From a virus: a stretch of DNA of 64,000 nt. The stretch is from the IMG/VR virus record IMGVR_UViG_3300035228_001078, one strand, 5' to 3'. Positions 20,585-50,433 of the stretch are shown here, in pieces (within the stretch, counting starts at the first letter, position 1; every line of letters starts with the position of its first letter). The notes below the pieces were generated by a model that worked only from the letters and a program-made list of their open reading frames with translations, made no database searches and was not told the DNA's origin. The translations under genes were made by a program, and so were the position numbers.

Positions 20585-20587
20585 ACT

Positions 20588-20626: not shown

Positions 20627-20635
20627 ACAGGTCTT

Positions 20636-21444: not shown

Positions 21445-21446
21445 AA

Positions 21447-21904: not shown

Positions 21905-22082
21905 TGTGTTCTTTATTATACACCACTTGAGGGAAAAGTCTTGTATTAAAATTTAATTCAAATTCTTCTATGGCGAAGTCCTCATCAAGAGTATACACCA
22001 CATGCTTCTGCTCTGTCAACTCCATGAGTTGCTTTACCTGGCGGCAGTGATTGCAACCAGGCATCGAATAAATGATGAACAT
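21852..22082 (-). CDS. nrdC: glutaredoxin (NrdC-like)
   Basis: YS.PGCNHC, FPQV, HIGG. Confidence 0.85.
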   Translation of the reverse strand: MFIIYSMPGCNHCRQVKQLMELTEQKHVVYTLDEDFAIEEFELNFNTRLFPQVVYNKEHIGGCQETVAYFREQNLV

Positions 22083-22097
22083 GATATCAAATTAATA

Positions 22098-25000
22098 TCA
22101 AATATATGTAGCCCCTCCATCTTGACCACCGAGAGTCATGATACTCAGTTCTCCAAGATCTTCAAGGGCAGGAATACCATTATACACCCTAACCGTATAT
22201 CCGTTAACCGTTCTGTCAGAAATCCTAAGATTAACAATACCGCCTGGGAAGGCATTTGTACCACTCGCGATACCAATGACAGCGTAGTCTGTATCTGCCA
22301 TGGCATCTGAGAAGTTCACATTGTATGTTCCAGTAGCAGTTTGTTCAATGGAGCTGACATTATGTGAGCGATCACCAGGAGTGTAGTCACTGTTGCCAAC
22401 ACCAAGATTGCTATTCATGTACCAGGAGGTAGCACGACCCTCATAGAACTGAGTGTAAGTAGCAGTCTTAAGACCTACAAGGTTCTTAAACTCACCAACT
22501 CTGCTGATTTTATGGAAGTCATTGTTGAAAACTTGGATAGAGTTACCCATGCTTCCAAATTGTGTTCCAACACCAGCACCATAGTACAGAAGCTGAGGTG
22601 TGTTCTCATTAATAACAATCTCAGTATATGTTCCAGTCTCAGTTACATTGTCCTCATATACGACAGGTGTGGTTGTACCGAAACCAACTGGATCACCAGA
22701 AGCAGCGTAGTAGAACCTAATTGGGTAGGCTGCTTGCTGTGACGCATTAGTAAAGCGATAGGTTTGACCTACTTCAAATCTCAGGTAAGGAGATTCATAA
22801 CCCTGAACATTGATAGAACGATCAGATCCGATGCCATAATATCTGTGATCTGTTGTCTTTGTACCAATAGTAGTAGGTAGAGGCTTGAACGATCCCTCAT
22901 GCTCCGTGTAAAGGTTCTTAGCGGTGTCTGCAGCACCCGTGAGGGTGGAGAAACTAGCAGCAGATGCAAAGTTAGCATTGAGCGCCTGTGAGGCGATTCC
23001 GGCGAGCGTAGCATAGGTAGCAATGCCAGCGACAATAGCCTCAGATGCGATACCGGCAAGTGTAGCACGAGGTGCCTCGTTAATCGTTACGGTAACAATA
23101 CCAGCAGATACTGGACTGACATCAAGACCAGCATTAAAGTTAACTGTTCCTGCTGTACCAACTGCAGAACCAGAGTCTTGAATGATGACACCAGAACCAG
23201 AAGCAACAATGTTAGTCAGCTGAGAACCATCACCAATAAATCTCGGTGCAGTGATGTCATTATTGGATGTGATTGTGGCAGCAGCATCCAATTGAGAAGC
23301 AAATGCTGCAGTTGTTGCACTGAGTGCAGTTTGTGCAGAGATTGCTGTGTCTGCACTAACGGCAGTCTCAGCACTGGTTGCATTATTAGCAGTAATTGCT
23401 GCGGCAACCACAACTCCAGTGGCAAGACTGTTAGCAGTCTGAGCAATACTTACCGTATCTGCTGCAGTAATGGTAACAACACCAGCAGAGATAGGAGATA
23501 CTGTGAGGTTTTGAGCGAAGTTGACTGTAGCAGCAACGCCAATCGAAGATCCACTATCACTAACCTCAATACCACTACCAACAGCAGTGACACCTGTGAT
23601 ACCAGAACCATCACCGAAGAAAGCAGTTGCAGTAATGTTACCGCTGGTGTTGACATTAATGTTTGTACCGATACCAGAAGGACCAGGATCCTGAGGTACA
23701 GAGTGAGCAACAAATGTTAGGTTGGGTTTAGAACCACGAACAATCAGACTCTGACCTTTAGCAAGAGCAAGGTTATCAATCTGAACATCTTGTAGAGGAG
23801 CCAGTCTTAAACCAAATACTAAGTAGTCAGACTCTTGGAACTCAGCAATACCACCAGAGGACAGACCAACTGACATACCAACAGTAGAGTCAGAGTTCTG
23901 GTTAGTGGCATGAACCGTGACCAGACTATCTTCTTGTGCTGTAAAGAACTCAAGGTTTGTATTGATCTGGAAAGGAGGATTGAAACTCAGAGTACCAGAT
24001 CTTCTTCTACCATGAACCAAAGCAGAGTCAGGACCAAGTTTGTCAAACTTTCTAGTAGCAAAGGCAATGAAAGAAATGTTAGGGTCGAAGGAAGATACAA
24101 AGATCTTATCACCAGGCTTGACACCAACCTTCTCAATCAGTCTCGTGCCACCTCTATCAAGAGGAATACCATAAGTAATAAAATCACTCTGTTTGAATCC
24201 AGGCGTACTAGAGATACCAATAGAGAATGTAGAACGGAAATCGTTCTGGTTTGCAACACCGATACTAACTTCCAGTAGGTTATCAGACTCATAGAGCTGA
24301 ACTGGTTCAACAACACCCCTAGTTAGAGTAGTCTTGATGGATGCCAGTCTACCTACCTCAGCAAGAGCAGCAGCAGGTGTAGTGAAGCTGACTGTAGCAG
24401 AGAAGGGTGAAGTATGTTCAACACCAGATGTACCGTCAGCGTTGGAGAGGTGACGACATCTTACATAGAATGTTGTACCAGCAGCAAGACCATCTGAGAT
24501 GACCTGAGATAGGGAAGTATTATTATCACCTATGCTACTGAATACAATACTGATAGGTGTAAACGAAAGGTCACTAGCAACCTCATACTCAACTGCTTTG
24601 AGTGTACCAGATACAGCTTCACTATCAATAGAGATAAATGCACTCGATATAAGAGTGATACCAAATCTCTGCTGCAGAGTAGCTCCACTAGTAGGTGAAG
24701 TAATTGTTGGTGCCTGAACACCAGGTGCATTACCTAGCGTGGCGAATGAAACGATACCAGCAGAGAAGTTACCAACATATGCAGTGAATGCGGTGCCGTC
24801 ATCGTTGGATAGATGTCTGACACGGGCATAGTGTGTAGTGAAACCTGCTAACTGAACATTAACTGATTGAGTTAGATCTAATGACTGTAAACCTACAGAA
24901 TCCCAAACAACACTAGAGAAATCAGAGTCAGTAGCAAGTTGAAACTCAATTGCTTTTAGACTACCAGAGACTGTAGTGTCACCAATAGCAGAGTATTCTG

Positions 25001-27053
25001 ATGATCTTAACTGAAGACTCTCAGTGCTAACACCGACATCATCATTAATTGGAGACTGAATAGTTGGCTCATTAATACCAGCATTCGCTGTATCAATACC
25101 AGCACTTACATCCAAGTAAGTAATGGCAACTTTGCCTGCTGAATCTAGAGTTCTCTGGTTGAAAGATCCAGTCCACCAGTTAAAGTCAGAAGCACCATAA
25201 TCAGATGTCTGATGCTGGTCAAATAAGATATCAGTTCCTACAATGGTACTACCACCACCAACAGTGACTCCACCACCACCAGCAATGGTTCCAACACCTA
25301 CACCATAACCATGGTCATTCAACAACCACTTTCTTACATCTGTAGATGTTCCAGAAGGATTTCTCTGTAGATAGAGAGCAACAAGACCAGCAACTACAGG
25401 AGCAGCAGCTGATGTTCCGTTAAAATTGTTGTCATAATGATTGGGATTATCAAATCTTCTATAGTCTGCGTAAGTTCCAGAAGGAAGACCAGCAGCAAGA
25501 GTATCTTGTGCAGGTGCATAGATGTCAACACCAGGACCACTGTTAGAATACGATGCCTTTCTTTCTCTCAGGTCGGATTCAATAACATCATCCAGAGCAC
25601 CGACATTAATAACAGGATGATACCCTGTAGCCTCATTCCTACCAATACCTTGAGGGTTCATCCAGTCTCTGTGAGATGTTGGAGTTCTTTGTCCACCAAA
25701 CTCTGTTCTGGAATCATTAGAATTAAAATATCCATCCTGAACACCATTCAATCTATGAGGATCTGTAAATCCAATACCAATATACTGGTTGTTATTACCA
25801 GAGGCGGCGACATAGATAGCACCTGAGCTCAACAATTCATCACCAGCTTGATTGGTAGAATTGGATCTAGATGAAGATGACCAAGATTTATAAGCACCTG
25901 CGACCTGGTTACTAAAACCAAGAACCATATCTTCAACACCAGATGGAGATCCAGCAGAAAGTGTATTAGTTTGGAATGTACTGGTGATGCCAGTAAATTT
26001 ATAACTTATGTTAGATCCATCGTTATTGAGAGCAGCCTGATAACCCCAAGAACCATTAACAACAGTTGGGTTTCTTAGACCAAGCTCAACATTAACTGGT
26101 TTATATTGATGGAAGAATGAAATCAGATCATATGCTGTTTCAATATCCATTCCGACATTATCGGAGATGGCAGGCATGTTCCAGATATTTGCCCTGAATG
26201 CCAGACCAAAGTTCTTACCAGCAGCAAGAGATGCTGCAGAAGTACCGTGACCACTACCTAAGTTATTAGCACCTGCTGTGCCAATACCCATGGCACCATT
26301 TCTATTGTATCCAGAAGGGATAGCAATTTCAGGGAGAAGAACGAACTCAGATGAACGGGCGTTGTTATCTTCCCACCATGCTTCTGCTCTAGCTGTTTGG
26401 ATACCAGTAGTACCGTCTGCAAGAGTGTAAATAAATCCGTTACTATTAAAGTATCCAGGATCTAGAAAGTAAGGGAAGTCAAGAACAATATCTTTTACTC
26501 TACTCGTTCCATCATCATGTAAGAATTCTGGGTGGGATTGCAGAACACCAGAGTCATGGATAACAATGTCAACATTTCTACCATCATAAAGGTACTCAAC
26601 ATTACCTTGGACTGGAGCAATACTACCAGATGCATTGTCCCATTGAGCAAACTCACCAGCACTGGTGATACCAGAAATTCTGGGTAGTGCCCAGTTAGTA
26701 CGATTCTCTTCACCAGCTGTTGCAATACCAGGAGGACCATTACTAGTCAGATCTCTATAGATTTTGACATCACTTGGAAATCTATTTGCAACTAATTGTG
26801 GTTCTGGATAGTTATCTTTGTTATCTTTTAAAGAAAGTTCAATCCATTTGACATGAGGATGACGACCGATCTCTGTCGCCTCTTCATCGGTAAGTTCGTA
26901 TGTACCACGAACCGCACTGATGGAGTGCGTATCAGTACAAGTTACTTTTCTATCAGGAATTCCATCCTGATTAGAGTCAATGGTGAGAACACCGTGGATC
27001 CCACTCCAATGTTCGGCACTGGTTACAGCCAGGGTATATCTCTTAAGAGTCAT
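22098..27053 (-). CDS. large virion protein: N-terminal S8 subtilisin-like protease, tandem Ig/FN3-like repeats, fibre-like C-terminus
   Basis: triad motifs VIHDSG / GHGT / NGTSAAAPVVAG; duplicated modules; CTAAATA late promoter at 27086-27092. Confidence 0.8.
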   Translation of the reverse strand: MTLKRYTLAVTSAEHWSGIHGVLTIDSNQDGIPDRKVTCTDTHSISAVRGTYELTDEEATEIGRHPHVKWIELSLKDNKDNYPEPQLVANRFPSDVKIYRDLTSNGPPGIATAGEENRTNWALPRISGITSAGEFAQWDNASGSIAPVQGNVEYLYDGRNVDIVIHDSGVLQSHPEFLHDDGTSRVKDIVLDFPYFLDPGYFNSNGFIYTLADGTTGIQTARAEAWWEDNNARSSEFVLLPEIAIPSGYNRNGAMGIGTAGANNLGSGHGTSAASLAAGKNFGLAFRANIWNMPAISDNVGMDIETAYDLISFFHQYKPVNVELGLRNPTVVNGSWGYQAALNNDGSNISYKFTGITSTFQTNTLSAGSPSGVEDMVLGFSNQVAGAYKSWSSSSRSNSTNQAGDELLSSGAIYVAASGNNNQYIGIGFTDPHRLNGVQDGYFNSNDSRTEFGGQRTPTSHRDWMNPQGIGRNEATGYHPVINVGALDDVIESDLRERKASYSNSGPGVDIYAPAQDTLAAGLPSGTYADYRRFDNPNHYDNNFNGTSAAAPVVAGLVALYLQRNPSGTSTDVRKWLLNDHGYGVGVGTIAGGGGVTVGGGSTIVGTDILFDQHQTSDYGASDFNWWTGSFNQRTLDSAGKVAITYLDVSAGIDTANAGINEPTIQSPINDDVGVSTESLQLRSSEYSAIGDTTVSGSLKAIEFQLATDSDFSSVVWDSVGLQSLDLTQSVNVQLAGFTTHYARVRHLSNDDGTAFTAYVGNFSAGIVSFATLGNAPGVQAPTITSPTSGATLQQRFGITLISSAFISIDSEAVSGTLKAVEYEVASDLSFTPISIVFSSIGDNNTSLSQVISDGLAAGTTFYVRCRHLSNADGTSGVEHTSPFSATVSFTTPAAALAEVGRLASIKTTLTRGVVEPVQLYESDNLLEVSIGVANQNDFRSTFSIGISSTPGFKQSDFITYGIPLDRGGTRLIEKVGVKPGDKIFVSSFDPNISFIAFATRKFDKLGPDSALVHGRRRSGTLSFNPPFQINTNLEFFTAQEDSLVTVHATNQNSDSTVGMSVGLSSGGIAEFQESDYLVFGLRLAPLQDVQIDNLALAKGQSLIVRGSKPNLTFVAHSVPQDPGPSGIGTNINVNTSGNITATAFFGDGSGITGVTAVGSGIEVSDSGSSIGVAATVNFAQNLTVSPISAGVVTITAADTVSIAQTANSLATGVVVAAAITANNATSAETAVSADTAISAQTALSATTAAFASQLDAAATITSNNDITAPRFIGDGSQLTNIVASGSGVIIQDSGSAVGTAGTVNFNAGLDVSPVSAGIVTVTINEAPRATLAGIASEAIVAGIATYATLAGIASQALNANFASAASFSTLTGAADTAKNLYTEHEGSFKPLPTTIGTKTTDHRYYGIGSDRSINVQGYESPYLRFEVGQTYRFTNASQQAAYPIRFYYAASGDPVGFGTTTPVVYEDNVTETGTYTEIVINENTPQLLYYGAGVGTQFGSMGNSIQVFNNDFHKISRVGEFKNLVGLKTATYTQFYEGRATSWYMNSNLGVGNSDYTPGDRSHNVSSIEQTATGTYNVNFSDAMADTDYAVIGIASGTNAFPGGIVNLRISDRTVNGYTVRVYNGIPALEDLGELSIMTLGGQDGGATYI

Positions 27054-27126
27054 GCCTCAAAATCTACAGGTGAACACCTTTTTTATATTTAGGTGTGGTA
27101 GAATATATATTTAAAAGATCCTTGAT

Positions 27127-27939
27127 ATGAATATCGTAACTGGTGCTAAAGGTTTTATTGGCAATCACTTTGCCTGCACCGTAGACAAACCTCTTGAGGT
27201 TGATATTGACAACTGCTTTGAGCTACTCAATAAGTTCAATCATTGGAAAGATGTTGACATGATCATCCATATGGGTGCATTGTCTTCAACTGTCAATAAA
27301 GATGTCGATGCTATCTACAAATATAATATTGATTATAGCATAAAACTATTTGAAAAAGCCATTGAGTATGGTATTCCTGTAAAGTATGCTTCATCTGCAT
27401 CAACATACGGTCGCACTGATGACATCATTAATCCTTTGAACTACTATGCAATGTCAAAGGCGACTGTAGATTACTGGGTGCAAGATAATATGCATCGGTT
27501 CTCTCACATTCAGGGGTTCAAGTTCTTTAATGTGTATGGATTTGGTGAGGTTAACAAAGGAGAGCAAGCTAGTCTTGTGAGTAAGTTCCAGTGGCAATCA
27601 GCGACTGGTGCAATCCATCCATTCCAAGGATCTGATAAGGTTCTTAGAGATTATATCTGGGTTGGAGATATTGTTAATGTTGTCCTGACTAACAATGCAG
27701 GTAGTGGTATCTTTGATCTAGGTACAGGTAAAGCTATTCCTATTCAACATGTAGCAGATCTCGTCGCACAAAAAAACGAGGCAAGGGTGGAAGAGATTCC
27801 TTTCCCACCAAACCTCGTTGAGAAGTATCAGTTTCATACCCAAGCAGATATGAGTTGGTTGTCAAATTATAACTTTAGAACTGTTGATGATTATATCAAT
27901 CATCCAGACCCATCAATCGCCTCTCTTGATCCGTATTGA
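27127..27939 (+). CDS. gmhD: ADP-L-glycero-D-manno-heptose 6-epimerase-like NAD-dependent epimerase
   Basis: VTGAKGFIG, HMGALSST, YASSASTYG, PLNYYAMSK, FNVYG, RDYIWV; next to HldE domains. Confidence 0.8.
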   Translation: MNIVTGAKGFIGNHFACTVDKPLEVDIDNCFELLNKFNHWKDVDMIIHMGALSSTVNKDVDAIYKYNIDYSIKLFEKAIEYGIPVKYASSASTYGRTDDIINPLNYYAMSKATVDYWVQDNMHRFSHIQGFKFFNVYGFGEVNKGEQASLVSKFQWQSATGAIHPFQGSDKVLRDYIWVGDIVNVVLTNNAGSGIFDLGTGKAIPIQHVADLVAQKNEARVEEIPFPPNLVEKYQFHTQADMSWLSNYNFRTVDDYINHPDPSIASLDPY

Positions 27940-28287
27940 ATCTGAATCAAAGTGTTGCGTTGAGAACTCAAACAACTCAGAGTCATCCAACGCAATCATT
28001 TGATGCCTTAGTCCAGTAGGAACATAAAACTTATCTCCAGGCTCTAAGACTGTAAGTTCTGCATTACGGAGATCATCATCCCACCCATAATATAATGAGA
28101 TGAGACCACTCTGTAAGTAGAAGGTCTCATCTTTTATTTTATGGTAATGCCATGAACATCTCTTGTTCTTCTTAATAAACAAGAGTTTGCCACAGTATTG
28201 TTCATTGTTAACGATCCACTTCTCATATCCCCATCCTTTAGGGACATATTTAATTGAAGAATTCTTCTGAGTTGATTCCTTTGTCAT
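27913..28287 (-). CDS. cupin-fold sugar isomerase-like protein
   Basis: KGWG.E.W, YCGK.L, S.HYH..KDETFY, H....EFST. Confidence 0.75.
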   Translation of the reverse strand: MTKESTQKNSSIKYVPKGWGYEKWIVNNEQYCGKLLFIKKNKRCSWHYHKIKDETFYLQSGLISLYYGWDDDLRNAELTVLEPGDKFYVPTGLRHQMIALDDSELFEFSTQHFDSDSIRIKRGD

Positions 28288-28573
28288 CGATGTAATAGTC
28301 TGCTGCAGGTTTACCTAAGAAAAGTGTGTGGTACTTACATCCCCAGGAGTTTAGTTGCTCGATAGTAAAATCGTAATACTTATCGTTAGCTTCCTTACGA
28401 TTATTTTCAAATGTTCCCATACCTCTCGCGGTATGATAGATGATCTCGTGCCCATCATCATACAATTTATTTATGATTTGAATCCTAGCCCAGCGTGGGA
28501 CAGCATGAGTATATCTACTATCTCCCTTGCCAGGGAAGCAGATCGTACCGTCAATGTCTACATTATATCTCAT
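28250..28573 (-). CDS. HAD-superfamily phosphatase
   Basis: DIDGT, HTARG, GKP.AD.YIDDK. Confidence 0.8.
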   Translation of the reverse strand: MRYNVDIDGTICFPGKGDSRYTHAVPRWARIQIINKLYDDGHEIIYHTARGMGTFENNRKEANDKYYDFTIEQLNSWGCKYHTLFLGKPAADYYIDDKGINSEEFFN

Positions 28574-29166
28574 TGTACTATATCAAATTCACATTGAACA
28601 TTAAAACTAATCGTAACACGATCTGTTACAGCTGGATCAACATAGTGATACATTTCAGAAGGAAAGATTATGATCTCACCCTCCTTTGCATAGGTTGTGC
28701 TGTGCATAAAATCTTGATAAGGTTGATTAGATCCGTTACCAAAGAAGACAGTTCTATTGTCCTCCTCTAAGTGGTAGAGATAGATTCCTGAGAAAGTTGA
28801 TGATGGATGCACATGTGGGTGATGACAATTACCACGAGTGTAATATGTGTACCAAATATCAACTAAGTTTATGTTACTTAGATCTGGCATTTCAAATGGC
28901 AGATCATCAGCACAATCAGAAATAGGATCAAACACAATATCCTTGATAAAATCTAGGTCATGTAAATGATCCATAAATGCTGACGAAGGATCGTTAGCAC
29001 CTCTGTTGTCCCAAGGAAAAGACAAATCATAAAACTGTGACTCCTTGTCAGCTTGAATCCAATCCCAAAGAACTCTTTTTATATTAGCATGATTCTTGAT
29101 CTTCTTCCTATACAGGAAAGGACCAGGGAATAAAGTTAGATCAAATGTTGAGGATTCTATCGACAT
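28570..29166 (-). CDS. 2OG-Fe(II) oxygenase (TIGR02466-like)
   Basis: W...Y, H.PHVH, SGIY, IIFPS...H.V, R.TISFN. Confidence 0.8.
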   Translation of the reverse strand: MSIESSTFDLTLFPGPFLYRKKIKNHANIKRVLWDWIQADKESQFYDLSFPWDNRGANDPSSAFMDHLHDLDFIKDIVFDPISDCADDLPFEMPDLSNINLVDIWYTYYTRGNCHHPHVHPSSTFSGIYLYHLEEDNRTVFFGNGSNQPYQDFMHSTTYAKEGEIIIFPSEMYHYVDPAVTDRVTISFNVQCEFDIVQ

Positions 29167-29935
29167 CTTCCATTCTCAAAGTGTATGTGCCTGGGTTTTG
29201 TACAGCAATTGCAGCTGCCTTGTTTGCGAAAGAAATTGCCTCTTCCATCACAGGCAATTGAACAAAGTAAAATACTAATGCAGCAAGGAATGTATCACCA
29301 GCACCTGTCACATCAAATGTTCTGACGAGATCATTGCAGGGAAATATTTTCTTATTCCATGCTGCACCATCATCCCCAAGAGTAACAATCATATTCTCTC
29401 CATTAGGAATGTTACCAGGATCTAATGCCTCAAATTCTTTCTTGTTAATTTTATAGATGATATTACTGAACTCTGTAACAAGTTTAGTTTTTTTCGTATC
29501 CACAAATATTTTAGTATTAGGATACCTGCCAGCAATATCACTGATTATTTTAGTGTCAGGAATGAATCCTTTGTTATAGTCTGAGATGATAATTGCATCG
29601 TAGGTATCATGCAACAGTGCCATCTGCAACTGAGCTGAATGTAACTCTTTTACATCAGGCTCACTGTCAACTCGAATGATCTGCTGATTACTTTTACTAT
29701 CAATAAACCTGGTCTTCTTTGCTTCTTCCTTGTTACACAAAAAAGTAACAGTAATACCAAGAGACTCTAAGTTCTGCTTGACATTACCTGCCATACCAGG
29801 AGCAGTATCTTTACCTTGCTCAATAAGAATAGGAACAGGTGCCTCTGGACTTAAGCGATCACACTCACCATAGACCCATTCATCGGTACAACTATCCCCG
29901 ATCAATAATACTTTGTATTGTTTTGCTAGTTGCAT
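29141..29935 (-). CDS. heptose-7-phosphate kinase (HldE/RfaE domain I, PfkB family)
   Basis: RLSPEAPVP, G.AGNV, SDYNKG, DVTGAGDTF. Confidence 0.9.
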   Translation of the reverse strand: MQLAKQYKVLLIGDSCTDEWVYGECDRLSPEAPVPILIEQGKDTAPGMAGNVKQNLESLGITVTFLCNKEEAKKTRFIDSKSNQQIIRVDSEPDVKELHSAQLQMALLHDTYDAIIISDYNKGFIPDTKIISDIAGRYPNTKIFVDTKKTKLVTEFSNIIYKINKKEFEALDPGNIPNGENMIVTLGDDGAAWNKKIFPCNDLVRTFDVTGAGDTFLAALVFYFVQLPVMEEAISFANKAAAIAVQNPGTYTLRMEDVDRILNI

Positions 29936-30296
29936 AATCTTCTAGTCTAGGGAAAAAATGTACTTCGGCAGAGAACATGGATCCGATGACAGACTTTCCT
30001 TCCCAGTCAGATCCTACTACCATTATGTCAGGATTTGTAACCTTTACACAGTTCTCTAGCTCTAGATCAGAGTCAAACAAGAGAACATGATCTACGGTTT
30101 TAAGACTTGAGAGCATGTATGCTCTGTCTTCGGCAGTATTTATTGGTCGTGTTGGACCCTTCTTTTCTTTTACTCTTTCGTCACTATCAATAGCGACAAC
30201 TACAACATCACCTTGGGACTTTGCATACTCCAGTAGTTCAAGATGACCACGATGGAGTATGTCAAAGGTCCCATTAACAAATACTTTCTTAGTCAT
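29892..30296 (-). CDS. heptose-1-phosphate adenylyltransferase (HldE/RfaE domain II)
   Basis: NGTFDILHRGH, DSD..V...KG..RPIN, V.GSDW. Confidence 0.88.
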   Translation of the reverse strand: MTKKVFVNGTFDILHRGHLELLEYAKSQGDVVVVAIDSDERVKEKKGPTRPINTAEDRAYMLSSLKTVDHVLLFDSDLELENCVKVTNPDIMVVGSDWEGKSVIGSMFSAEVHFFPRLEDYATSKTIQSIIDRG

Positions 30297-32103
30297 TTGA
30301 TAATGAAATCAGTTTACCATATTCGGGAAGATACAAATATTCAATCTCAGAATTTGCAAGAGTTCTACATGCATCATCCAATGTTTCTACAAGAGGTTCA
30401 CCACCGAGATTAAACGATGTGTTAAACAAGATAGGACAACCAGTTGCTTCATAAAAACAATTGATTAGATTGTAGTAGTTCTCATTCTGCTCTTCAGTTA
30501 CAGTTTGAATACGACATGTATCATCGATATGAATAATAGAAGGAATCTTTTCTTCAATTCCTGGCAAACAATTAACAGCGTACATCATATGAGGAGTCTC
30601 TTCCATGCCACGCAGATCAAACCACTCATGTACATGTTCTTTCAGAATAGATCCAGCAAAAGGACGGAAGTATTCACGCCGCTTTACTTTATTGACATGA
30701 TCTTTTCCTTTAGGATCACGAGGATCATAAACAATAGAACGATTGCCTAGAGCTCTAGGACCAGATTCAGATCTACCTTGGAACATCGCAACAATATTTT
30801 TATCAGTGATCAAATCAACTACAGTTTGATCTGTTGCTTCAGATACTTTAGCGCCATACTTATCAGAGGTGTCTACAATATCACTAAGTTTATAATTATA
30901 TTCTTTCCCAAGATATAAACTAGTTGCATAAGGACGGACCTTAGAATCACCAGTAACCCTATGATAATGAAGAAGAGCTGCACCAATAGCAGTGCCTGCA
31001 TCATTAGAAATGGGTTCAGCATATAGATTGATACCCTCGTCTTTCAGTTGATCAAGATACCAATAGTTTGCAACACAATTCAGACCATATCCACCAGAGA
31101 TAACAACATTAGATGTTTCGCTAGATTCAACTGCACTTCTAATCAAAGAAAGAACTTGTTGCTGTGATTCAGTTTGGATTTTGTATGCTAAGTCCCTACG
31201 ATTCTGCATCCTAGTCCAATCATTTCTATCAATCTCAGGATCAGTATGGAGTTCTGAGCACGCTCCCTCATTAACAAGAGACGCATTTGGATATGTTGGG
31301 GAGAGCATGTTTAGATTGGTTGGAACATATCCACCAATCTTATTTTCCTCTGAAAAGAGAGAAGGAATTTTTTCGTTTGGTTTACCATATGGAAACAGAC
31401 CCATGGTTTTCCCTGCTTCAATTGCATGGAATCCACAGTATTGAGTTACAGCTTCGTATGCTTTGACAATACCAGGTGTACAATCAATAACCATAAAAGA
31501 TGTTCCCTCTTCATCCTGATGAAGTTGAGAGTTATCAAACTGAGGATTAATTTGTGGCGGAATGCCAACACCATTACCACCTAGGTGTCTGTAAATAGGA
31601 ACAAATGATGCGGGATAATCACATCCAAATATAGATTCAGTCTCCCAGAAAGTATGACTTCTATCACCAAACTTCATTGGAATAAATGTTCCAGCACCAT
31701 CAACTACAACAGAGACTGCCTTATCAAATCCAGAACGATAAAACGCGCAAGCTGCATGTAATTTATGATGAATAGTACCATAATCAATCACCTGGTGATG
31801 ACCATCTGGAGTTTTAGATCTACGATCAATCAGTCCCAACTTCCGTGCCAGTCCTGTGTAAGGATCTTCTCCGCAATACTCAAGTCTATTACCGCTAGAA
31901 CTAATTAATTCAGTGTGTGCGACTACAAGATAGTCTAGTCTATCAGTGTACTCTAGAATCTTTGTCATCGATACTAGAGGAGCTCCATCATACTTTGCTC
32001 TAGTAAGTCTTTCTTCTTCTACTGCAAGTACAATCTCACCATCTTTTAAGAGACAAACTCCTCCATTATGTCCCCTAGTAATACCAGCAATCCATTGTGT
32101 CAT
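30289..32103 (-). CDS. carbamoyltransferase (NodU/CmcH family), second copy
   Basis: HNGG, EEERL, HH.LHA, GKTMGL, FQGRSESGPRALGNRS, RPFA, NTSFN. Confidence 0.92.
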   Translation of the reverse strand: MTQWIAGITRGHNGGVCLLKDGEIVLAVEEERLTRAKYDGAPLVSMTKILEYTDRLDYLVVAHTELISSSGNRLEYCGEDPYTGLARKLGLIDRRSKTPDGHHQVIDYGTIHHKLHAACAFYRSGFDKAVSVVVDGAGTFIPMKFGDRSHTFWETESIFGCDYPASFVPIYRHLGGNGVGIPPQINPQFDNSQLHQDEEGTSFMVIDCTPGIVKAYEAVTQYCGFHAIEAGKTMGLFPYGKPNEKIPSLFSEENKIGGYVPTNLNMLSPTYPNASLVNEGACSELHTDPEIDRNDWTRMQNRRDLAYKIQTESQQQVLSLIRSAVESSETSNVVISGGYGLNCVANYWYLDQLKDEGINLYAEPISNDAGTAIGAALLHYHRVTGDSKVRPYATSLYLGKEYNYKLSDIVDTSDKYGAKVSEATDQTVVDLITDKNIVAMFQGRSESGPRALGNRSIVYDPRDPKGKDHVNKVKRREYFRPFAGSILKEHVHEWFDLRGMEETPHMMYAVNCLPGIEEKIPSIIHIDDTCRIQTVTEEQNENYYNLINCFYEATGCPILFNTSFNLGGEPLVETLDDACRTLANSEIEYLYLPEYGKLISLSND

Positions 32104-33098
32104 TTTCCAAATCCTTTAGGTTCACAGCAAGAAGGAGTCATAACCTTCTGGGGTTCTTTCGTTACATCACGGAACTTTGGTTTACCAAGTCTCTTACGGC
32201 ATGAAGAAACGACTTTATCGTATACATCCTTAGACATATTCATACACTCATCATTCATCATGTCCTGATAGTCTTCCATCGTCAATCTAATTGGCGAGAA
32301 TGTTCTATCATTCTCACCAACATCAATTATATCAAATGTAGAATCTTCTGGGTATGAAATGTTAACAGGATAGGTAGAACCAATCACAGCTGTTACAGAT
32401 GTTTCTGTGCTCTTAGCAATGTGTTGTCCTACAGAATCACATCCAACAAAATGATCTGCATTCTGAATGATACCAGCCCAAACTCTAATATCTGCTTGTG
32501 GCCAGGCAACATGAGGAGTTTGTTCTCCAATTTGGAACTGGAACTCACTCATGATCACAACAGCATAATCTTTTCTAAGATTATTAATTAGATCTACTGC
32601 ATGAGTTGTATGAAAACTTCTAGAAGATGGATCAATAATATATTCCTGCTCTACCTGAACACCTCTACCAAATGGTTGGAAGACTACAACTTTTTCCTTG
32701 CCAGTTACATTCTTAATTTCCTCAATAGTATTAAGAGCAGTGATCGCTTCTGTTTTAGATAACTTAATGCTAGGGGAAGGAAGTTCTCTAGGTTCTGTAA
32801 TACCATTGATTTCCATATCAAAAGCTTGTGCAATATTACACTTCTGATTGTAATAATGCCACTGACGATATGGTTCTGGAGTTACACAATCCCTAGACTT
32901 GAGGTAATCCTCAAACAGATTCTTATGCCAATTGTCAAACGCATACTTATGGAGAACGGGATGCGCTTTGTAGAAATTCATTCCACCTTCGCACACGATG
33001 ATAAAGTCATCATGAGTCTCTGCATACTTTACAAATGCAGGGATAGAACAAATCACTCGACCAGCGCCGCCGTTAATGAAAAATGCTTTAGCTCTCAT
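32100..33098 (-). CDS. GT-B glycosyltransferase, GT9/heptosyltransferase-like
   Basis: GG.G..ICSIP N-terminus; I..AD.FVGCDS..QHIA motif; adjacent ADP-heptose genes; ATAAATA at 33118-33124. Confidence 0.7.
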   Translation of the reverse strand: MRAKAFFINGGAGRVICSIPAFVKYAETHDDFIIVCEGGMNFYKAHPVLHKYAFDNWHKNLFEDYLKSRDCVTPEPYRQWHYYNQKCNIAQAFDMEINGITEPRELPSPSIKLSKTEAITALNTIEEIKNVTGKEKVVVFQPFGRGVQVEQEYIIDPSSRSFHTTHAVDLINNLRKDYAVVIMSEFQFQIGEQTPHVAWPQADIRVWAGIIQNADHFVGCDSVGQHIAKSTETSVTAVIGSTYPVNISYPEDSTFDIIDVGENDRTFSPIRLTMEDYQDMMNDECMNMSKDVYDKVVSSCRKRLGKPKFRDVTKEPQKVMTPSCCEPKGFGK

Positions 33099-33124
33099 AT
33101 TATCTTGAGTAACGGGTTATTTAT

Positions 33125-33835
33125 TTACATGAATAGCACTTGTGCCATTCGATCATGGTCGGTAAACATGCCTTCAGAATACCATTGACTATGCAGTAGG
33201 TCAGCTTCATAGAGTATACATCTATTATACACCATCTTGAATTCTAATTCAACTTTCCAGGGAGATTCTGGATCTACATCAACCCAGTCTCTCAACCATC
33301 TATTTTTAGTCAGTTGATTAAACTCATGACCCATTGCTACACAATCTTCAGTGATCATGTCTGGTCTAGGAAAAGATTGTTTGCCATAATATGAATAGAG
33401 TCTTGTTCCACCCTGACATTCATCTCCTTTATTCAAATAGATTACAGATCCAAAATTAATATCAAATGAATCTTGATGAGGTATACCACCACCAACATCC
33501 ATGGTCTTAGCATTCATTATATTGCACATGAATCCAGATTTATTCCAGTTGCTTTCCCACTCCTGTTCATTAACTGGACTCTTCCATATAGGATGTTGTT
33601 TAAGCTGATCGAAGAGTGGTTTAAGATTCTCCTTAACACGAGAGTCTTCTTCATAAACTCTCCATCCAGGGAGACCTGCAATCAGATCTGGATCATCTCT
33701 ATTAGGAGAGTCGATACAATACTGTCTAACCTCATCTGGATTTTTATAGAACCCATCAATAATTAATGCGTTTCTTTTTTCTTCTCCAATCTCAGATACA
33801 ACTGTAATATCAAATTCTTTATTTAATTCAAACAT
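33125..33835 (-). CDS. 2OG-Fe(II) oxygenase-like (DUF6445-like)
   Basis: ID.FY.NP..VR, PHQD, IYLN, GGT.LY, YNR..LY...LLH, R..QV.F. Confidence 0.75.
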   Translation of the reverse strand: MFELNKEFDITVVSEIGEEKRNALIIDGFYKNPDEVRQYCIDSPNRDDPDLIAGLPGWRVYEEDSRVKENLKPLFDQLKQHPIWKSPVNEQEWESNWNKSGFMCNIMNAKTMDVGGGIPHQDSFDINFGSVIYLNKGDECQGGTRLYSYYGKQSFPRPDMITEDCVAMGHEFNQLTKNRWLRDWVDVDPESPWKVELEFKMVYNRCILYEADLLHSQWYSEGMFTDHDRMAQVLFM

Positions 33836-33837
33836 GA

Positions 33838-34473
33838 TTAGTTAATGAATGTTATGTTGCCAGCAACTGAAACTCTTTCAATATCAGGAGTTCTAAATGG
33901 AACTACTGTATGCATCAAGCTTGATGGAAATAAAAAGAAGTCTCCTCTCTTAGGTAGGAAAAACTTTCTATTGTCTTGGAATGGAGGAACAGAATCGCCA
34001 TGAACAAACATGATTGATCCAGGAATAGGTCCATTACCTACCATGTTGAATCTTTCTTTCTCTGTCTGTAGCTCATCTGGCACATCAAGATACAGAACAA
34101 AACTCAAATCACCTCTATGGTTATGTAGGGGATTATAATCATGTTGTTTTTGATAATTAATCCATAGACTATCACATTCCCAAGAAGGACTTATACGATT
34201 CTCAACATGATGAGACAATCCATCTAAGTATAAAGAGATGTAAGGCTCAATCTGTTCTTGAAACCAGAGAATATGATTGGGTGTATAGTTCCATTCATCA
34301 TGCATATCTGCAGCTAACATTCTCTCTGCATTGTACTGTGGAACATCTCTAATTTCAGATGCTCTCTCTGCTAGACCATCTAAAATACTATCTTCCGTTG
34401 TCATCTGCAATAAAAAAGGTCCCCAAGTAATCGGTTTGCACACGAATTGCCTGGGGACTTCTGTATTAATCAT
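33838..34473 (-). CDS. 2OG-Fe(II) oxygenase
   Basis: WIN, NPLHNH, SFVLYL, FPS.L.H.V.PF, R.SVAGN. Confidence 0.8.
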   Translation of the reverse strand: MINTEVPRQFVCKPITWGPFLLQMTTEDSILDGLAERASEIRDVPQYNAERMLAADMHDEWNYTPNHILWFQEQIEPYISLYLDGLSHHVENRISPSWECDSLWINYQKQHDYNPLHNHRGDLSFVLYLDVPDELQTEKERFNMVGNGPIPGSIMFVHGDSVPPFQDNRKFFLPKRGDFFLFPSSLMHTVVPFRTPDIERVSVAGNITFIN

Positions 34474-34551
34474 ATCAAACCTTGGGAGTCAAAAAATATG
34501 GGGGAAATTTTTCCCCCATCAGTGTAATTATATATTCGATTTTGTTTTGGG

Positions 34552-35274
34552 TCAGTCTGTAATTCCGTTGTTAGGACGCTCACCTGTCGTGACACCCGCT
34601 CCAAGTTGATCAGGATCAAGTGGCCAAACAACCAAGTGAGTTGCTGTACCTACACCTGCCCAGTCAGTAGGAAGATTTCTCAACTTAGTACGATAGTCTA
34701 ACCAGGGTTGCTTGACAGAATCGGGCATGTCAACAGCTGCAACTCTAGAGTCACATGCCGTCAGCATTCCATTTCTTGTGTCGCGAATCTGATCCCATCC
34801 AAAGCAGACAGTATCAGTATTGACTACTTCGCTAGGTTCATCGTGACTGAATAGAGGAGTAGACCAGCTGTTAGCTGATGTATCGTAGTAGAAAGATCTG
34901 AGATCGAAAGCTTCACTAAAGTGATAGGGATCGCAGACAGTAGGATTGGGTTCGTTAGATGGACCACACTCTACTTCATACTGTTCAGCAGGGTCTTGCC
35001 AACCCCACAGAGCCATAGCATGTAGAGGATATTGCTCCGCATCTAAGGTAACTTCTACAAATCCAGGAGGGGTAGGAACATCAGCATCGATCGTTCCGAC
35101 CTCAGCGATTCTATCATTACCATCCAGACCTGGACTAGCTGGATCCCAAATGGTTTGGATATATCTAGGACCAACATAGGTAGAGATACCAGCTTCATCT
35201 GGATCTACCTCGTCTCCCATCCATTCGGTGGGGACTGAGTAAAGTACTGTTTTTGTGATTTGTGGATTAGACAT
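34552..35274 (-). CDS. tail fibre assembly chaperone
   Basis: C-terminal W..IR..RN..L...D...PD...W..YR..LR.LP....WP. Confidence 0.8.
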   Translation of the reverse strand: MSNPQITKTVLYSVPTEWMGDEVDPDEAGISTYVGPRYIQTIWDPASPGLDGNDRIAEVGTIDADVPTPPGFVEVTLDAEQYPLHAMALWGWQDPAEQYEVECGPSNEPNPTVCDPYHFSEAFDLRSFYYDTSANSWSTPLFSHDEPSEVVNTDTVCFGWDQIRDTRNGMLTACDSRVAAVDMPDSVKQPWLDYRTKLRNLPTDWAGVGTATHLVVWPLDPDQLGAGVTTGERPNNGITD

Positions 35275-35295
35275 TGTTCTTTAGATCTCCTTTAA

Positions 35296-36129
35296 TTACT
35301 GCCAGTAGGACACAACAACGAGACCAGCGGCACCGAAGCCACCCCAGCAACATCCGCCATCGGTAAACGGCGATGTTCCGCCACCACCAGGGAACAAGGA
35401 CTGACCTTTACAGCATCCATGAGTGTTACCACCAGAGCAGTTATCCATATTGAAGTTAGTTGAGGAAGCATAAGGTCCTACACCAGGTCCAGTCCAGGAT
35501 CTGTCAGTTCCCCTGCAATACTGGTTATTATGCTTACCACCAGAAGGACCAAGGATCCCAAAGTCTCCACCAAACCAGCAGGCACAAACCTGAAGACATT
35601 TCTGGCACTGTGCAGGAGCAACACAAGAGTAGCAACCGCCACCACAGTGGTGCCATCCCCATGCTCCACCTTCAGCACAGAAGTTAGAAAGACCAGAGCC
35701 TGTTACATAACTTTTGCAACCTCGTCTACCACAACATGCTCTACTTGTACACTGTCGGCAGCAGGAACACTGTGATGTTCCCCCAGCACAAATTGTGTAG
35801 GCTGTAGATCCAGGAGTGAAATCTTTGTATGCAAACAGAGTCTTGGTTACAAATGCACCAGCTCCACCTGAAGGACCATTGGAGCAACATGCACCGATAG
35901 ATCCTGTGCCACCGCCAGAGGTCAACTCAAATCGGATACTAGTTGTAAGGGCAGGAACCGTCCAGTTCAAGCAACAACCACCATTGGAAACACTCCAATA
36001 GTTGTTATTATACAAGTAAAACTGATCAGCGATACCTGTAGAAACCCCAGTGACCTGTCCAGGACCAACTGAGTTAGCGATAATCGCCTCAGTACCTTGA
36101 ATCTGTTTATATGTCTGGTAATTAGCCAT
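35296..36129 (-). CDS. Cys/Gly-rich tail fibre-like virion protein
   Basis: MANY.TYK start, CCLNWTVP, many CC pairs, GG.G.V.VSY end; late promoter CTAAATA at 36166-36172; followed by a chaperone. Confidence 0.7.
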   Translation of the reverse strand: MANYQTYKQIQGTEAIIANSVGPGQVTGVSTGIADQFYLYNNNYWSVSNGGCCLNWTVPALTTSIRFELTSGGGTGSIGACCSNGPSGGAGAFVTKTLFAYKDFTPGSTAYTICAGGTSQCSCCRQCTSRACCGRRGCKSYVTGSGLSNFCAEGGAWGWHHCGGGCYSCVAPAQCQKCLQVCACWFGGDFGILGPSGGKHNNQYCRGTDRSWTGPGVGPYASSTNFNMDNCSGGNTHGCCKGQSLFPGGGGTSPFTDGGCCWGGFGAAGLVVVSYWQ

Positions 36130-36185
36130 TGCTTTTAATATTCTAAAGTGGTGGAATCGTAATAGTATTTAGGAAAAAGCATAAT

Positions 36186-36210
36186 AAAAAGGGGGGAGAT
36201 TGCTCTCCCC
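36186..36210 (-). terminator. intrinsic terminator
   Basis: GGGGAGAGCAATCTCCCCCC followed by TTTTT. Confidence 0.7.
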
Positions 36211-36217
36211 AGAAGAA

Positions 36218-39200: not shown

Positions 39201-40222
39201 TGGACATTAATGTTAGATGATGCAATCGAGATGTAAGCAGAAGATGCAAACTCAGCGACATCATTAATCTCATATACACCAGAACCACTCCAGGTGCTTC
39301 TCCAATTGAAACCACGGTTAATCAGAGACCAACCATTAATACCAGTATCAACCGATGTAATACCAAGACCTACAGGTCGCTTATCAACTTCAATCTTAAT
39401 ATCGTCAGCAATATATGTAATACCACCAAGGGTTACAGTCTCACCTCTAGAATATGTCTGACTAGGAGCATAGGTAGATCCACCAGCAGTAGCAATACCA
39501 CTGACAAGCAGAGTCCATTCCTGTGGACTGTCGTTAGGTTGAGAAGATAACGGGTTAGTACCAATAGCTACATATGATGCACCTTGGAACTCAACAATGT
39601 CACCTCTCTCGTAACGAGCCAGGGCATCATAGATACCCTCGTTAGTGAAAGCTTTACTGAAGTCTACGAAGTTTGATGATGGAGGATAGAAACCATCCGA
39701 ACCAATACCTGTGAGATCGTGCAGGGATGTAGAGATCCCCTGCATCGATAAGTCTGCAGCGACTTGGAATGGTACTGTTGTTCGGTATTCTTGTCCGCCG
39801 TATCTAACAACATCATTGATGCCGTAGTAGGAGTTCGTAGTAAAGGCACCTCGGAAGTTCAGTCCCTCGCCGTAGAGCTCCCAGTATGCCGGGAAATCAC
39901 TACTGTACCAGTTACTTTGGACACCGGTCGAAGTGTGTTGAGCCGTACAGATGTATTGATTACCGCCTTCCTTGACGATATCGTTTACAACATATCCGGT
40001 ACTGACTGACCATTCGCCAGCATAATTCTGTCCCTCCGTATGAAGGTCCCAGTAGGTATTGTCGTTGGGAAATCCGGTAGAGCTGGCATCTGAGGTGTGG
40101 TTCCCTGTACATACATAGGAACTTGCACCGAATCTAACGATGTCATCAATAATGAATGCGGTAGAGGGTGCCCAGGCACCACGCCAGTTAAATTTCAGTC
40201 TACCAAGTCTAAATTCTGCCAT
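36218..40222 (-). CDS. large tail fibre/spike protein with carbohydrate-binding repeats and pectin-lyase-like beta-helix
   Basis: MAEFRLGR.KF.W.G.W, repeated W....Y..NDVV..GG..Y modules, SPYIKDCT region, C-terminal TLTLP.SP..GD fibre domain. Confidence 0.8.
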   Translation of the reverse strand: MAEFRLGRLKFNWRGAWAPSTAFIIDDIVRFGASSYVCTGNHTSDASSTGFPNDNTYWDLHTEGQNYAGEWSVSTGYVVNDIVKEGGNQYICTAQHTSTGVQSNWYSSDFPAYWELYGEGLNFRGAFTTNSYYGINDVVRYGGQEYRTTVPFQVAADLSMQGISTSLHDLTGIGSDGFYPPSSNFVDFSKAFTNEGIYDALARYERGDIVEFQGASYVAIGTNPLSSQPNDSPQEWTLLVSGIATAGGSTYAPSQTYSRGETVTLGGITYIADDIKIEVDKRPVGLGITSVDTGINGWSLINRGFNWRSTWSGSGVYEINDVAEFASSAYISIASSNINVQPGTAVTMWAAFAIGDSAALLTTKGDLLTRDGTGPSRQGIGTQGTYLRVSSSDEVEWQYPGLRTKVYYVDAQQGSDTSTGLTPDNAWGSISFASTAGQIRRDITNFVYDESSGIATVTAAAHGLFSQGQVKLQGIGFTCAQAHAGITTTIFPDSTQGFFFKVDSVVDSNSFTTNVGISTIAHTYVSGGEVTDVSPIILKLSAGVFREQLPITLPKNFSIAGDVLRGTTVEPAAGFATDGVTPNQRSTMFFVSDSTTVQAITMRGLQGFDYDTNDPFNTDQWQPKVGVGTTACGVYFRLNPDTPILERSPYIKDCTAFSNVCTDGTGHEGAVGIFIEGGVHEGKPEGRGGKSMVFDAFTNIHSGGVGFWLEDDALAEIVSSFTYYCAFGYVSDDGSEIRSLSGNNSYGTYGALAVGFSTLEVARSARLFGDKMATQVGTSAGTISVGATMRGATSGARAVVTNNQISGDQLYFKYNSGFGNADGANGAVGVGTTVFTPGEFIEFDSVGAGGTGYVKIASASNSVGGQKDGLFEVVGLSTTPLVGDTIGFTTVGLGFSDSIGYIVRTVSNYVPGNNFTPTAGAYNPSNGIVELTSNGHGMMVGDNIQLQTDSLSFTCALDGNTVTKTYPRAKGTGVNANSPDELHNTLVAISATTLNTFSFQSLGTIPSTNTSSHTFVSAATNAVNQANGRATINIAPVKGSAPASYDNQEFLMRSKFSKVRLTGHDFLLIGTGNTSATNYPNVDENTASQGNETTVLNTGKIFFVSTDQGGNFRVGEYFSVNQLTGAATLDASAFNLSGLSELRLGAIGGQIGEAVNEFSSDEFLSGDSNQACPTEKAVRGFLTRGKMDTTSGILVPPRGNQAGRPTGIDLIEGGLRYDTDSDGFEFYNGAGWLPLGAYSNVDVSGNGTTLANRQQAFCNTTSGGFTLTLPGSPVKGDTVRIFDVAKTFDSNALTIGRNGNPIMGDASDLTVNTEGAAFELVFYDGTQGWRIITI

Positions 40223-41055: not shown

Positions 41056-41080
41056 TATGGTTTACGAAATAGTGTGCGTC

Positions 41081-49635: not shown

Positions 49636-50433
49636 TTACTTACCCTCAAACCCAGGAGGAAGTCTGCCTAGGTATGGATTGAGATCGAAATAGGGTGTCC
49701 AATCCTCAACCATATTAGCATCATTCTTCCAAAAATTCCAGAGGGCATCATGACAATTTCTGTGATAGACATCAACATGGATGTCATGGATGTCTGACCC
49801 AAGTGCAATCTTATACATGAAGATAGGAAAGACGAAGGTCAGCCCGCTATTATAGATGAGATCATCTGCAACTGCACGGGGTTTGATTCTACTATCCAAC
49901 TTGTACTTGCCCTTCTTTGTGTAAAGGGATAGTAACTTCTCAGCATACCTACGATTAATAATGTAAGCAGCTGTAGAGAAATCGTTGATGAACCTGTAAT
50001 GCATTTGCAGAACAGGGACAGCAGGATTGATGATTGCGATCTGGATACAGTCCCATGCAGCAGGAGCATGACGGAACCAGTCTTTCCAAGAGAAGGGCCA
50101 GTGCTTGACCACTTCTAGATCGCAATCATCTTCCATCATTATAGCATACTCATCGTCGGAATTGTCCAACCAGTATTGGATCCCCTTAAGATGTGATGTG
50201 ACACAACCGATCTCACCAGACGACATGTTATCTGGATACTTACCAACGATGATGTCACTAAGATCATCATCTCTACCATCATAAGCAGAGATCCTAGTAT
50301 TTTCTACTTCCCAATAAGCAAACTGTTCCTCCATGAACTGCTTGCGATCAGTCTTAGAATCAAGATTGATCCAGTAGATATGTGGAATGTCCTTTAGCTT
50401 GTGTGCTGATTTATTTTTGTCCATGTCTGGCAA
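49636..50433 (-). CDS. glycosyltransferase family 25-like
   Basis: YWINLD...DR, RISAYDG, EIGC..SH, IMMEDD, AY.IN. Confidence 0.85.
   Translation of the reverse strand: MPDMDKNKSAHKLKDIPHIYWINLDSKTDRKQFMEEQFAYWEVENTRISAYDGRDDDLSDIIVGKYPDNMSSGEIGCVTSHLKGIQYWLDNSDDEYAIMMEDDCDLEVVKHWPFSWKDWFRHAPAAWDCIQIAIINPAVPVLQMHYRFINDFSTAAYIINRRYAEKLLSLYTKKGKYKLDSRIKPRAVADDLIYNSGLTFVFPIFMYKIALGSDIHDIHVDVYHRNCHDALWNFWKNDANMVEDWTPYFDLNPYLGRLPPGFEGK

Follow-up and report, generated by a model that had tools for sequence, protein, structure and literature searches.

What is marked by a short tetrapeptide pattern that recurs through the particle proteins of a marine cyanophage? The stretch of DNA analyzed here, hereafter the window, comprises 64,000 nucleotides of virus record IMGVR_UViG_3300035228_001078 and comes from a T4-like marine cyanophage that has no high-identity match in the phage collection searched; its fibre proteins find their best tblastn matches (42-53% identical) in Synechococcus and Prochlorococcus myophages. 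The element in question is the pattern G-[IVLF]-[GAST]-[TS], scored as four residue classes, which an earlier note on this DNA had found by eye in a 1651-aa virion protein, a 1334-aa fibre and three further proteins, and had interpreted as a convergently acquired site at which a phage-encoded glycosylation system modifies the virion. Few viruses of the ocean are as abundant as T4-like cyanophages, and the role of their glycosyltransferase (GT) genes has been open since the first genomes appeared, with modification of the host envelope or of DNA as the usual guesses. The present analysis confirms the pattern as a real, clade-wide, virion-restricted and fold-independent short linear motif. Because this motif parts one large clade from its sisters, marks the proteins of the particle and accompanies a gene of a fucosyltransferase family, it makes the role of these glycosyltransferases directly testable.

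The motif as a short element of virion proteins

The strength of the signal was assessed with composition-preserving shuffles, run both over whole proteins and inside blocks of 50 residues. The 1651-aa protein contains 17 copies against 3.4 expected (standard deviation 1.8) and the 1334-aa fibre 14 against 3.2, numbers reached in 0 of 2000 shuffles in either case, while the three copies in the tail-fibre assembly chaperone (GIST, GVGT and GVTT; 0.14 expected) were reached in at most 1 of 2000. Against the same shuffles, the Cys-rich fibre-associated protein showed no enrichment (one copy, GVST, versus 0.6 expected), and the gp5-like protein showed no significant one (two copies, GIST and GIGT, both in its C-terminal part, versus 1.0 expected). 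The order of the residue classes is equally specific: of the 24 possible orders, none is as frequent as the one stated in any of the three enriched proteins (17 versus 9 for the next order in the 1651-aa protein, and 14 versus 8 in the fibre). The remaining 16.3 k residues of the window hold 6 copies, and there the same order is among the lowest of the 24. The counts, coordinates and example motifs of the earlier note were all correct on recount, and its view that the motif exceeds composition is borne out by shuffles and class-order ranking alike, for the two large proteins and the chaperone but not for the Cys-rich and gp5-like proteins. Its impression that the motif is rare in enzymes also stands, in that replication and metabolic proteins lack it.

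Synonymous variation is seen in the codons that encode the motif, which have no oligonucleotide in common, and self-BLAST detected no internal repeats in either the 1651-aa or the 1334-aa protein; the signal therefore lies at the level of the protein. A cause in the DNA and an origin by internal duplication in these two proteins were rejected on the same grounds. Among 240 database homologues of the two proteins, the motif is enriched 2.5-8 fold, and the same range holds for 120 homologues of the 1651-aa protein. Individual sites are retained as well. Those at residues 1063, 1127, 1334/1343/1352 and 1407 of the 1651-aa protein occur in 19 of 19 aligned sequences, and residues 626 and 829 of the fibre carry the motif in 23 of 23 homologues, the core kept at such conserved sites being G-hydrophobic-x-[T/S].

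In the motif-rich phages described in the next section, the consensus extends over about six residues and reads approximately [V/T/S/A]-G-[I>V>L,F]-[G/S/T/A]-[T>>S]-[T]. After G[IV], threonine at position +3 is enriched 3.3-fold, serine 1.3-fold and valine 0.9-fold; position -1 prefers V, T, S or A, and position +4 has a mild preference for T. Outside positions -1 to +4 the relative entropy falls to about 0.04-0.25 bits, in giant proteins (at least 1500 aa) and in proteins of 200-900 aa alike. With flanks so nearly empty of information, the motif is a six-residue short linear element and not the signature of a domain or of a single repeat family. It also emerges without prior definition, since a de novo ranking of exact tetrapeptides in proteins of at least 700 aa from the rich group places motif words directly behind the low-complexity words RPRP and PRPR: GIST (93 observed, 8.6 expected), GIAT (70, 6.6), GIGT (89, 10.7), GITT (76, 10.2) and GIVT (55, 7.8). 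In neutral cyanophages these five words occur at or under expectation.

Distribution across T4-like phages and co-distributed genes

Eighteen whole genomes of T4-like cyanophages and pelagiphages were compared together with that of T4, and they fall into two groups. The genome-wide ratio of observed to expected copies is bimodal, at 2.3-3.2 in eight rich phages (S-T4, S-CAM9, S-PRM1, Sf-FS3, S-SSM7, S-SCSM1, S-SCSM2R and P-SSM2) versus 0.76-1.25 in eleven neutral ones, namely S-TIM54, S-CAM3, S-CAM1, S-PM2, S-H38, Syn9, P-SSM4, Mosig, S-WAM2, ACG-2014e and T4; the window stands at 2.55. Individually significant proteins number 4-8 per rich genome and 0 per neutral genome. A general property of phage fibres was rejected as the source of the motif by T4 itself (0.82-fold genome-wide), in which gp34, gp37, gp12, gp7 and wac have 0 copies and gp10 has 0-1, and in which 24 proteins checked total 4 copies against about 12.6 expected.

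When 57 core gene families are compared, virion proteins account for all four of the largest gains of rich over neutral genomes: gp8 (4.0 copies in rich versus 1.1 in neutral orthologues), the tail sheath (3.9 versus 1.2), gp13 (1.7 versus 0.3) and gp23 (1.0 versus 0.25). Within the same 57 families, no gain is seen for DNA polymerase, helicases, enzymes of the ribonucleotide-reductase type or photosystem genes. Of the 31 rich-clade sites in the sheath, 29 lie in a variable N-terminal part that cannot be aligned to the sheaths of other T4-like phages, and their positions vary among clade members. In seven rich phages the S8 peptidase domain holds 1-4 copies, versus 0-1 in five neutral ones, with 0.4-0.9 expected. 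The earlier note had described the motif as scattered through unrelated domains, and this is the case: it was found in the S8 peptidase, the beta-helix and FCCH-like domains and the chaperone of the window, and in the sheath, gp8, gp13 and gp23 of its relatives.

Homologues of the 1334-aa fibre in the neutral phages S-CAM3, S-CAM1 and Mosig allow the fold to be held constant. These have 2-3 copies where 2-3 are expected, and they read GPAT, PIGT, GFNA and EFIT at the positions of GIAT, GIGT, GFST and GFTT in the window; most other rich homologues carry a motif form there too. As homologous fibres are at chance level in these three phages, the motif was rejected as a property of the fold.

Gene-content profiles (BLASTP from the window, S-T4 and S-PRM1, with E < 1e-5 and coverage of 40% or more) yielded only three families present in all eight rich and none of the eleven neutral genomes: a GT11-family glycosyltransferase (1-3 copies), a short-chain dehydrogenase/reductase (SDR) epimerase resembling the GDP-L-fucose synthase Fcl, and one giant virion protein. 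GT11 and the Fcl-like enzyme are thus the only enzyme families in every rich and no neutral genome, and the enzyme genes that define the clade are a glycosyltransferase and its likely sugar-nucleotide supplier. GT25 follows closely (7 of 8 rich, 0 of 11 neutral), as do several small or unannotated genes (6-7 of 8 versus 0 of 11), one of which encodes a 313-aa protein of S-T4 without a Pfam family.

Other candidate correlates were tried and rejected. The whole GDP-fucose pathway fails because Gmd occurs, among the fetched genomes, only in S-SCSM1 and P-SSM2 (2 of 8 rich), and the GT2 and GT1 families are sporadic, as are the GT6, GT4-like and methyltransferase genes within the clade. The cluster of heptose-type, GT9-like and carbamoyltransferase genes accompanies the 1334-aa fibre type into neutral phages; protein O-heptosylation of the TibC/AAH type was set aside together with it, given the weak GT9 match (E = 0.02, below cut-off) and the presence of the cluster in the motif-neutral S-CAM3 and S-CAM1. 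Collagen-like repeats, considered together with GT25, occur in only some clade members.

Seven further phages were sampled in part, over stretches of 24-50 kb, and their GT11 status agrees with their motif status throughout, the motif status of one being uncertain. ACG-2014f, Bellamy and P-TIM68 are rich and GT11-positive, S-RIM2, ACG-2014a and Syn30 are neutral and GT11-negative, and S-RIM44 is GT11-negative with a ratio of 1.66 on 8 copies, which leaves its motif status uncertain. ACG-2014f was considered as an exception, being GT11-positive with a core structural region at 1.3-fold, and was rejected as one: its excess resides in the giant fibres, which are four in number and hold 48, 58, 64 and 31 copies where 6-8 would be expected. 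A GT11 homologue also occurs in the 635-kb phage LR745206.1.

Glycosylation site, structural element or other recognition site

The preferred, if tentative, reading of this motif is that its threonine is an O-glycosylation site on the proteins of the particle. The motif would be a recognition site on virion proteins, most probably a Thr acceptor, on which soluble phage enzymes may act in the cytoplasm of the infected cell. The putative enzymes are the one to three GT11-family transferases and the GDP-fucose-synthase-like enzyme, usually with GT25, and the sheath surface, the baseplate periphery and the fibres would carry a fucose-containing glycan. Candidate sites number roughly 100-190 per rich genome. 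We infer three things here, namely the modification of Thr, the action of GT11 or another GT on protein rather than on host lipopolysaccharide, and the identity of the sugar. The full version, in which a clade-defining cytoplasmic system, started or extended by GT11 and using GDP-fucose made by the phage, takes G-[IVLF]-[small]-Thr as its sequon and produces glycan-coated sheaths, baseplates and fibres, is conceivable but remains doubtful. If the threonines are glycosylated, this would be the first defined sequon of phage virion glycosylation known to us, and the first such case in a host of Gram-negative type, with a bearing on host recognition, grazing, aggregation and the decay of particles in sea water.

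Phage-encoded glycosylation of virions has been described in mycobacteriophages (Freeman et al. 2023, Cell Host Microbe, as cited in PMC12801897). Glycosylation of virions by viral enzymes is also known in chloroviruses. The system proposed here would resemble that of the mycobacteriophages in that soluble phage GTs modify capsid or tail proteins in the cytoplasm before assembly, giving a glycan-coated particle. In mycobacteriophages the sugars are reportedly placed on Ser/Thr-rich C-terminal extensions of the capsid and tail-tube proteins, as shown by mass spectrometry, whereas the candidate site here is a tetrapeptide spread over many folds and the candidate enzymes are GT11, the Fcl-like enzyme and GT25. 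The chlorovirus parallel extends to Pfam PF06598 (Chlorovirus glycoprotein repeat, from Vp260 of PBCV-1), a repeat of a viral surface glycoprotein with weak matches in the fibre part of the 1651-aa protein and its relatives. It was rejected as the source of the motif: the match scores 13.9 bits against a cut-off of 27 and covers an F-x-G-D-G-S-x-L-T-x-I element (FIGDGSQLTNI, residues 1272-1288) instead of G-phi-x-T. Vp260 is, moreover, thought to carry a glycan of the same kind as the N-glycosylated capsid protein Vp54, and not an O-linked one.

For the enzyme, a parallel is offered by the fucosyltransferase superfamily GT11/GT23/GT65/GT68, within which conserved peptide motifs link GT11 to the protein O-fucosyltransferases POFUT1 and POFUT2 (Martinez-Duncker et al. 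2003, as cited in PMC9602691), so a protein-directed relative of GT11 is conceivable. POFUT1 and POFUT2 differ from the system proposed here, as they fucosylate Ser/Thr in folded EGF and TSR modules, their sequons are framed by Cys and they act in the endoplasmic reticulum. The genes themselves are not new. GT11, GT25, GT2/GT4, Gmd, Fcl and epimerases make up the "cell wall synthesis and modification" sets of the cyanophages S-SCSM1, S-SCSM2R and P-SSM2, and neither the virion motif nor its clade-wide co-distribution is mentioned in the available parts of PMC9602691 and PMC12801897.

Several observations weigh against glycosylation. All rich, GT11-positive phages form one clade, with support of 100 in the SH-like approximate likelihood ratio test (SH-aLRT) in both trees, one built from nine concatenated core proteins and the other from sheath, terminase and portal of 25 phages. 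The association between motif and GT11 consequently represents one evolutionary change, and the co-occurrence could be coincidental inheritance. The weaker support that is left is that, over at least ten genera of the clade, neither motif richness nor GT11 has been lost, and that the enzymes defining the clade include a glycosyltransferase. The correlation of motif with GT genes proposed in the earlier note thus holds for GT11 and the Fcl-like enzyme (8 of 8 versus 0 of 11), within the limits of a single clade and event, and its glycosylation interpretation as a whole gains from virion restriction, fold independence and this correlation but is held back by the same single phylogenetic event. 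Published work assigns cyanophage GTs to the host envelope or cell wall, or to DNA modification (PMC9602691 and PMC12801897), and literature searches returned no mass spectrometry of virions from any clade member. No initiating protein O-transferase was identified: O-FucT (PF10250) was considered and rejected, as S-SCSM1 alone has it. The GT11 enzymes characterised so far add fucose to glycans, and we know of none that acts on protein. Many sites in homologues of both large window proteins keep their positions over 38-96% identity, so they are old and not recent convergent gains. Of the idea of convergent acquisition, then, the acquisition on virion proteins is fairly stated, since orthologues of the same fold in sister clades lack the excess, whereas the recent convergence is not.

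The invariant Gly and the conserved hydrophobic residue at +1 also fit a turn followed by the start of a strand, which leads to the main competing explanation, one we regard as unlikely, that the motif is purely structural. Gly would form the turn, the hydrophobic residue would point into the core and Thr would act as a hydrogen-bonding cap at the start of a strand in beta-rich modules that were inherited and expanded, with nothing attached to them and with the GTs acting on host envelope glycans or on DNA. The long retention of many positions agrees with this, as do the confident sites in the AlphaFold model of the 1334-aa fibre, which lie at loop-strand junctions, the three-copy tandem repeat at residues 1331-1357 of the 1651-aa protein, and the giant fibres of ACG-2014f, which often place the motif in a regular L-x-V-S-G-phi-x-T-phi context. 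The giant virion protein family shares the clade-specific profile of the GTs.

A known loop offers the closest structural parallel. In Bdellovibrio Bd3182 (PDB 8OJN), the sequence VGVGTTAPTSAL is described as a loop that caps the edges of trimeric beta-helix fibres (Caulton et al. 2024, PMC10769870), with a consensus V-G-G/N-small-x-x-P-x-x-x-L shared by Bd3182 and the fibres of phages K1F and T5 (PMC10769870); Bd3182 was solved as an autoprocessing recombinant fragment and no glycan was reported (PMC10769870). The likeness lies in the core G-[VI]-G-T-T-x-P, matched in the window by GIGTTSP (gp5-like protein), GFGTTTP (1651-aa protein, residue 1457) and GLSTTP (1334-aa fibre, residue 875) and approached by GVGTTVFTP. 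The capping loop, however, requires Pro at +6/+7 and then Leu, whereas Pro at +6 is only 1.3-fold enriched after G[IV] in the clade, about 4 of 37 sites in the five named window proteins have T-x-P or T-P after the motif, and most motif sites lie in folds other than fibres. Capping-loop and tandem-repeat sites together account for about 5 of 17 sites in the 1651-aa protein and 2 of 14 in the fibre, or about a quarter. These classes leave the sites in the protease, sheath, gp8, gp13 and gp23 unaccounted for, as well as the absence of an excess in sister clades.

Further points also count against a purely structural role. The same folds in sister clades and T4 lack the excess (chance level in S-CAM3, S-CAM1 and Mosig; 0 copies in gp34, gp37 and gp12), and the motif extends to the subtilase domain, the outer sheath, gp8, gp13, gp23 and the chaperone. 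Flanks with so little information do not point to a common repeat family, and Val is not favoured at +3, although a position that merely required beta-branching would take it. Should the threonines prove unmodified, the motif would still be a clean, clade-wide and fold-independent signature in need of a structural explanation.

Recognition by something other than a glycosyltransferase, such as a protease, a clade-specific chaperone of assembly, a partner in cross-linking or decoration, or an enzyme for Thr phosphorylation or acylation, is improbable. Virion restriction, fold independence and compactness suit such a reader equally well, several of the small or unannotated genes come near the required distribution (6-7 of 8 versus 0 of 11), and the fibre chaperone itself has three copies. 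No candidate reader, however, reaches 8 of 8 versus 0 of 11, which only GT11, the Fcl-like enzyme and the giant virion protein do, and no earlier example of such a motif is known to us. That the motif follows from a composition rich in Gly, Thr and Ser, or was picked out after the fact, can be set aside almost entirely: it was indeed defined after reading the sequence of proteins rich in these residues, but 0 of 2000 shuffles (those in 50-aa blocks included), first rank among 24 orders, de novo recovery among the top tetrapeptides, enrichment in the 240 homologues and its lack in proteins of similar composition from neutral phages all speak against it.

Genes of the window and neighbouring observations

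The virion genes and the sugar-related genes of the window are listed below.

Table 1. Positions of virion, sugar-nucleotide and glycosyltransferase genes in the window.
Feature	Coordinates	Strand	Evidence and remarks
gp5-like baseplate hub and tail lysozyme	1155..3350	-	PHROG 1922, 432 bits
Virion protein, 1651 aa	22098..27053	-	N-terminal S8 subtilase fused to fibre-like C-terminal part; Pfam Peptidase_S8 70 bits; PHROG tail-fibre families C-terminally
Sugar-nucleotide, carbamoyltransferase and GT9-like cluster	27127..34473		Pfam; between the two fibre genes
Tail-fibre assembly chaperone	34552..35274	-	Pfam Phage_tail_APC; PHROG tail fibre assembly
Gly- and Cys-rich fibre-associated protein	35296..36129	-	Pfam Gly_rich_2
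Tail fibre or tailspike, 1334 aa	36218..40222	-	Pfam CBM_5_12 repeats; PHROG tail fibre 821 bits; gp10-like C-terminus
GT25-family glycosyltransferase	49636..50433	-	Pfam Glyco_transf_25
Three GT4-like, FkbM-like and GT6 genes	50411..55493	-	Pfam; sporadic within clade
GT11-family glycosyltransferase (alpha-1,2-fucosyltransferase family)	55478..56287	-	Pfam Glyco_transf_11 (PF01531) 93.6 bits, cut-off 23.9
GDP-L-fucose synthase (Fcl)-like SDR enzyme	56284..57237	-	NCBIfam GDPFucSynFcl 439 bits, best family, below 500-bit cut-off
GDP-mannose 4,6-dehydratase (Gmd)	58481..59473	-	TIGR01472, 533 bits

The GT11 match is nearly full length, with residues 10-266 aligned to positions 37-294 of the 298 in the profile, and the Fcl-like and Gmd genes adjoin this gene. 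A C-methyltransferase is also encoded in the block from GT25 to Gmd. The GTs of the window have no clear membrane segment, one GT4-like protein having a borderline hydrophobic stretch and GT11 having no transmembrane-like segment, and no flippase, polymerase or ligase is encoded in the window. The sugar-nucleotide genes and about eight GTs counted by the earlier note are real; as a set, those eight are not the relevant one, most of them being sporadic in the clade. In S-T4, the only recognisable GTs are a four-gene block of GT25, GT11, a GT7C-like gene and a second GT11 (73105-76330), which would be a minimal version of the glycan toolkit of the clade.

The cluster between the two fibre genes comprises an SDR epimerase, a pfkB kinase, a carbamoyltransferase and the GT9-like gene. 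Its homologues were found in the rich phages Sf-FS3, S-SSM7 and P-SSM2 and in the neutral phages S-CAM3 and S-CAM1, all of which have the 1334-aa type of fibre, and part of such a cluster is present in S-T4. Given its presence in fibre-bearing phages of both clades, this cassette travels with the fibre type and not with the motif. Boxes of the sequence NATAAATA, resembling T4-type late promoters, lie at 33099-33125 and 41056-41092, 27-37 nt upstream of the GT9-like gene (32100-33098) and of the operon (from 40585-41055 on) whose last gene encodes the 1334-aa fibre. The GT11 block has no box of this kind upstream of it inside the window, nor anything else there that informs on the timing of expression.

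The CAZy family GT25 also contains collagen galactosyltransferases. Long collagen-like runs occur in S-CAM9 (27398-32890) and S-PRM1 (122963-128437), both rich in G-x-K, and in P-SSM2 (18953-25106), rich in G-P-x, and their co-distribution with GT25 is not clean.

The 1651-aa protein is a gene fusion with the peptidase at its N-terminus. S-T4, S-SSM7 and S-SCSM2R have two adjacent genes instead, the fibre-like part first and the S8 peptidase after it. The AlphaFold model of residues 1101-1651 was too poor to use, with a predicted local distance difference test (pLDDT) score of 46. The tandem repeat of this protein has the nine-residue unit x-A-G-[IV]-[AS]-T-Y-A-x and adjoins the recurring elements F-x-G-D-G-S-x-L-T and V-G-I-G-T-T-x-P-x-x-x-L; the same unit follows itself about a dozen times, arranged in several blocks, in the metagenomic fibre P0211.

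For the 1334-aa fibre, the model of residues 140-940 (pLDDT 69) consists of E1-FCCH-like domains and a right-handed beta-helix, with Foldseek matches to tailspike depolymerases, GH110 enzymes and E1 FCCH domains, and residues 1178-1331 match a tailspike in the PDB. The beta-helix, at about residues 400-800, resembles capsule depolymerase tailspikes and GH110 alpha-1,3-galactosidases. The latter cleave blood-group-B epitopes, and GT6 and GT11 are families that build such epitopes; genes of both share the window with this GH110-like beta-helix.

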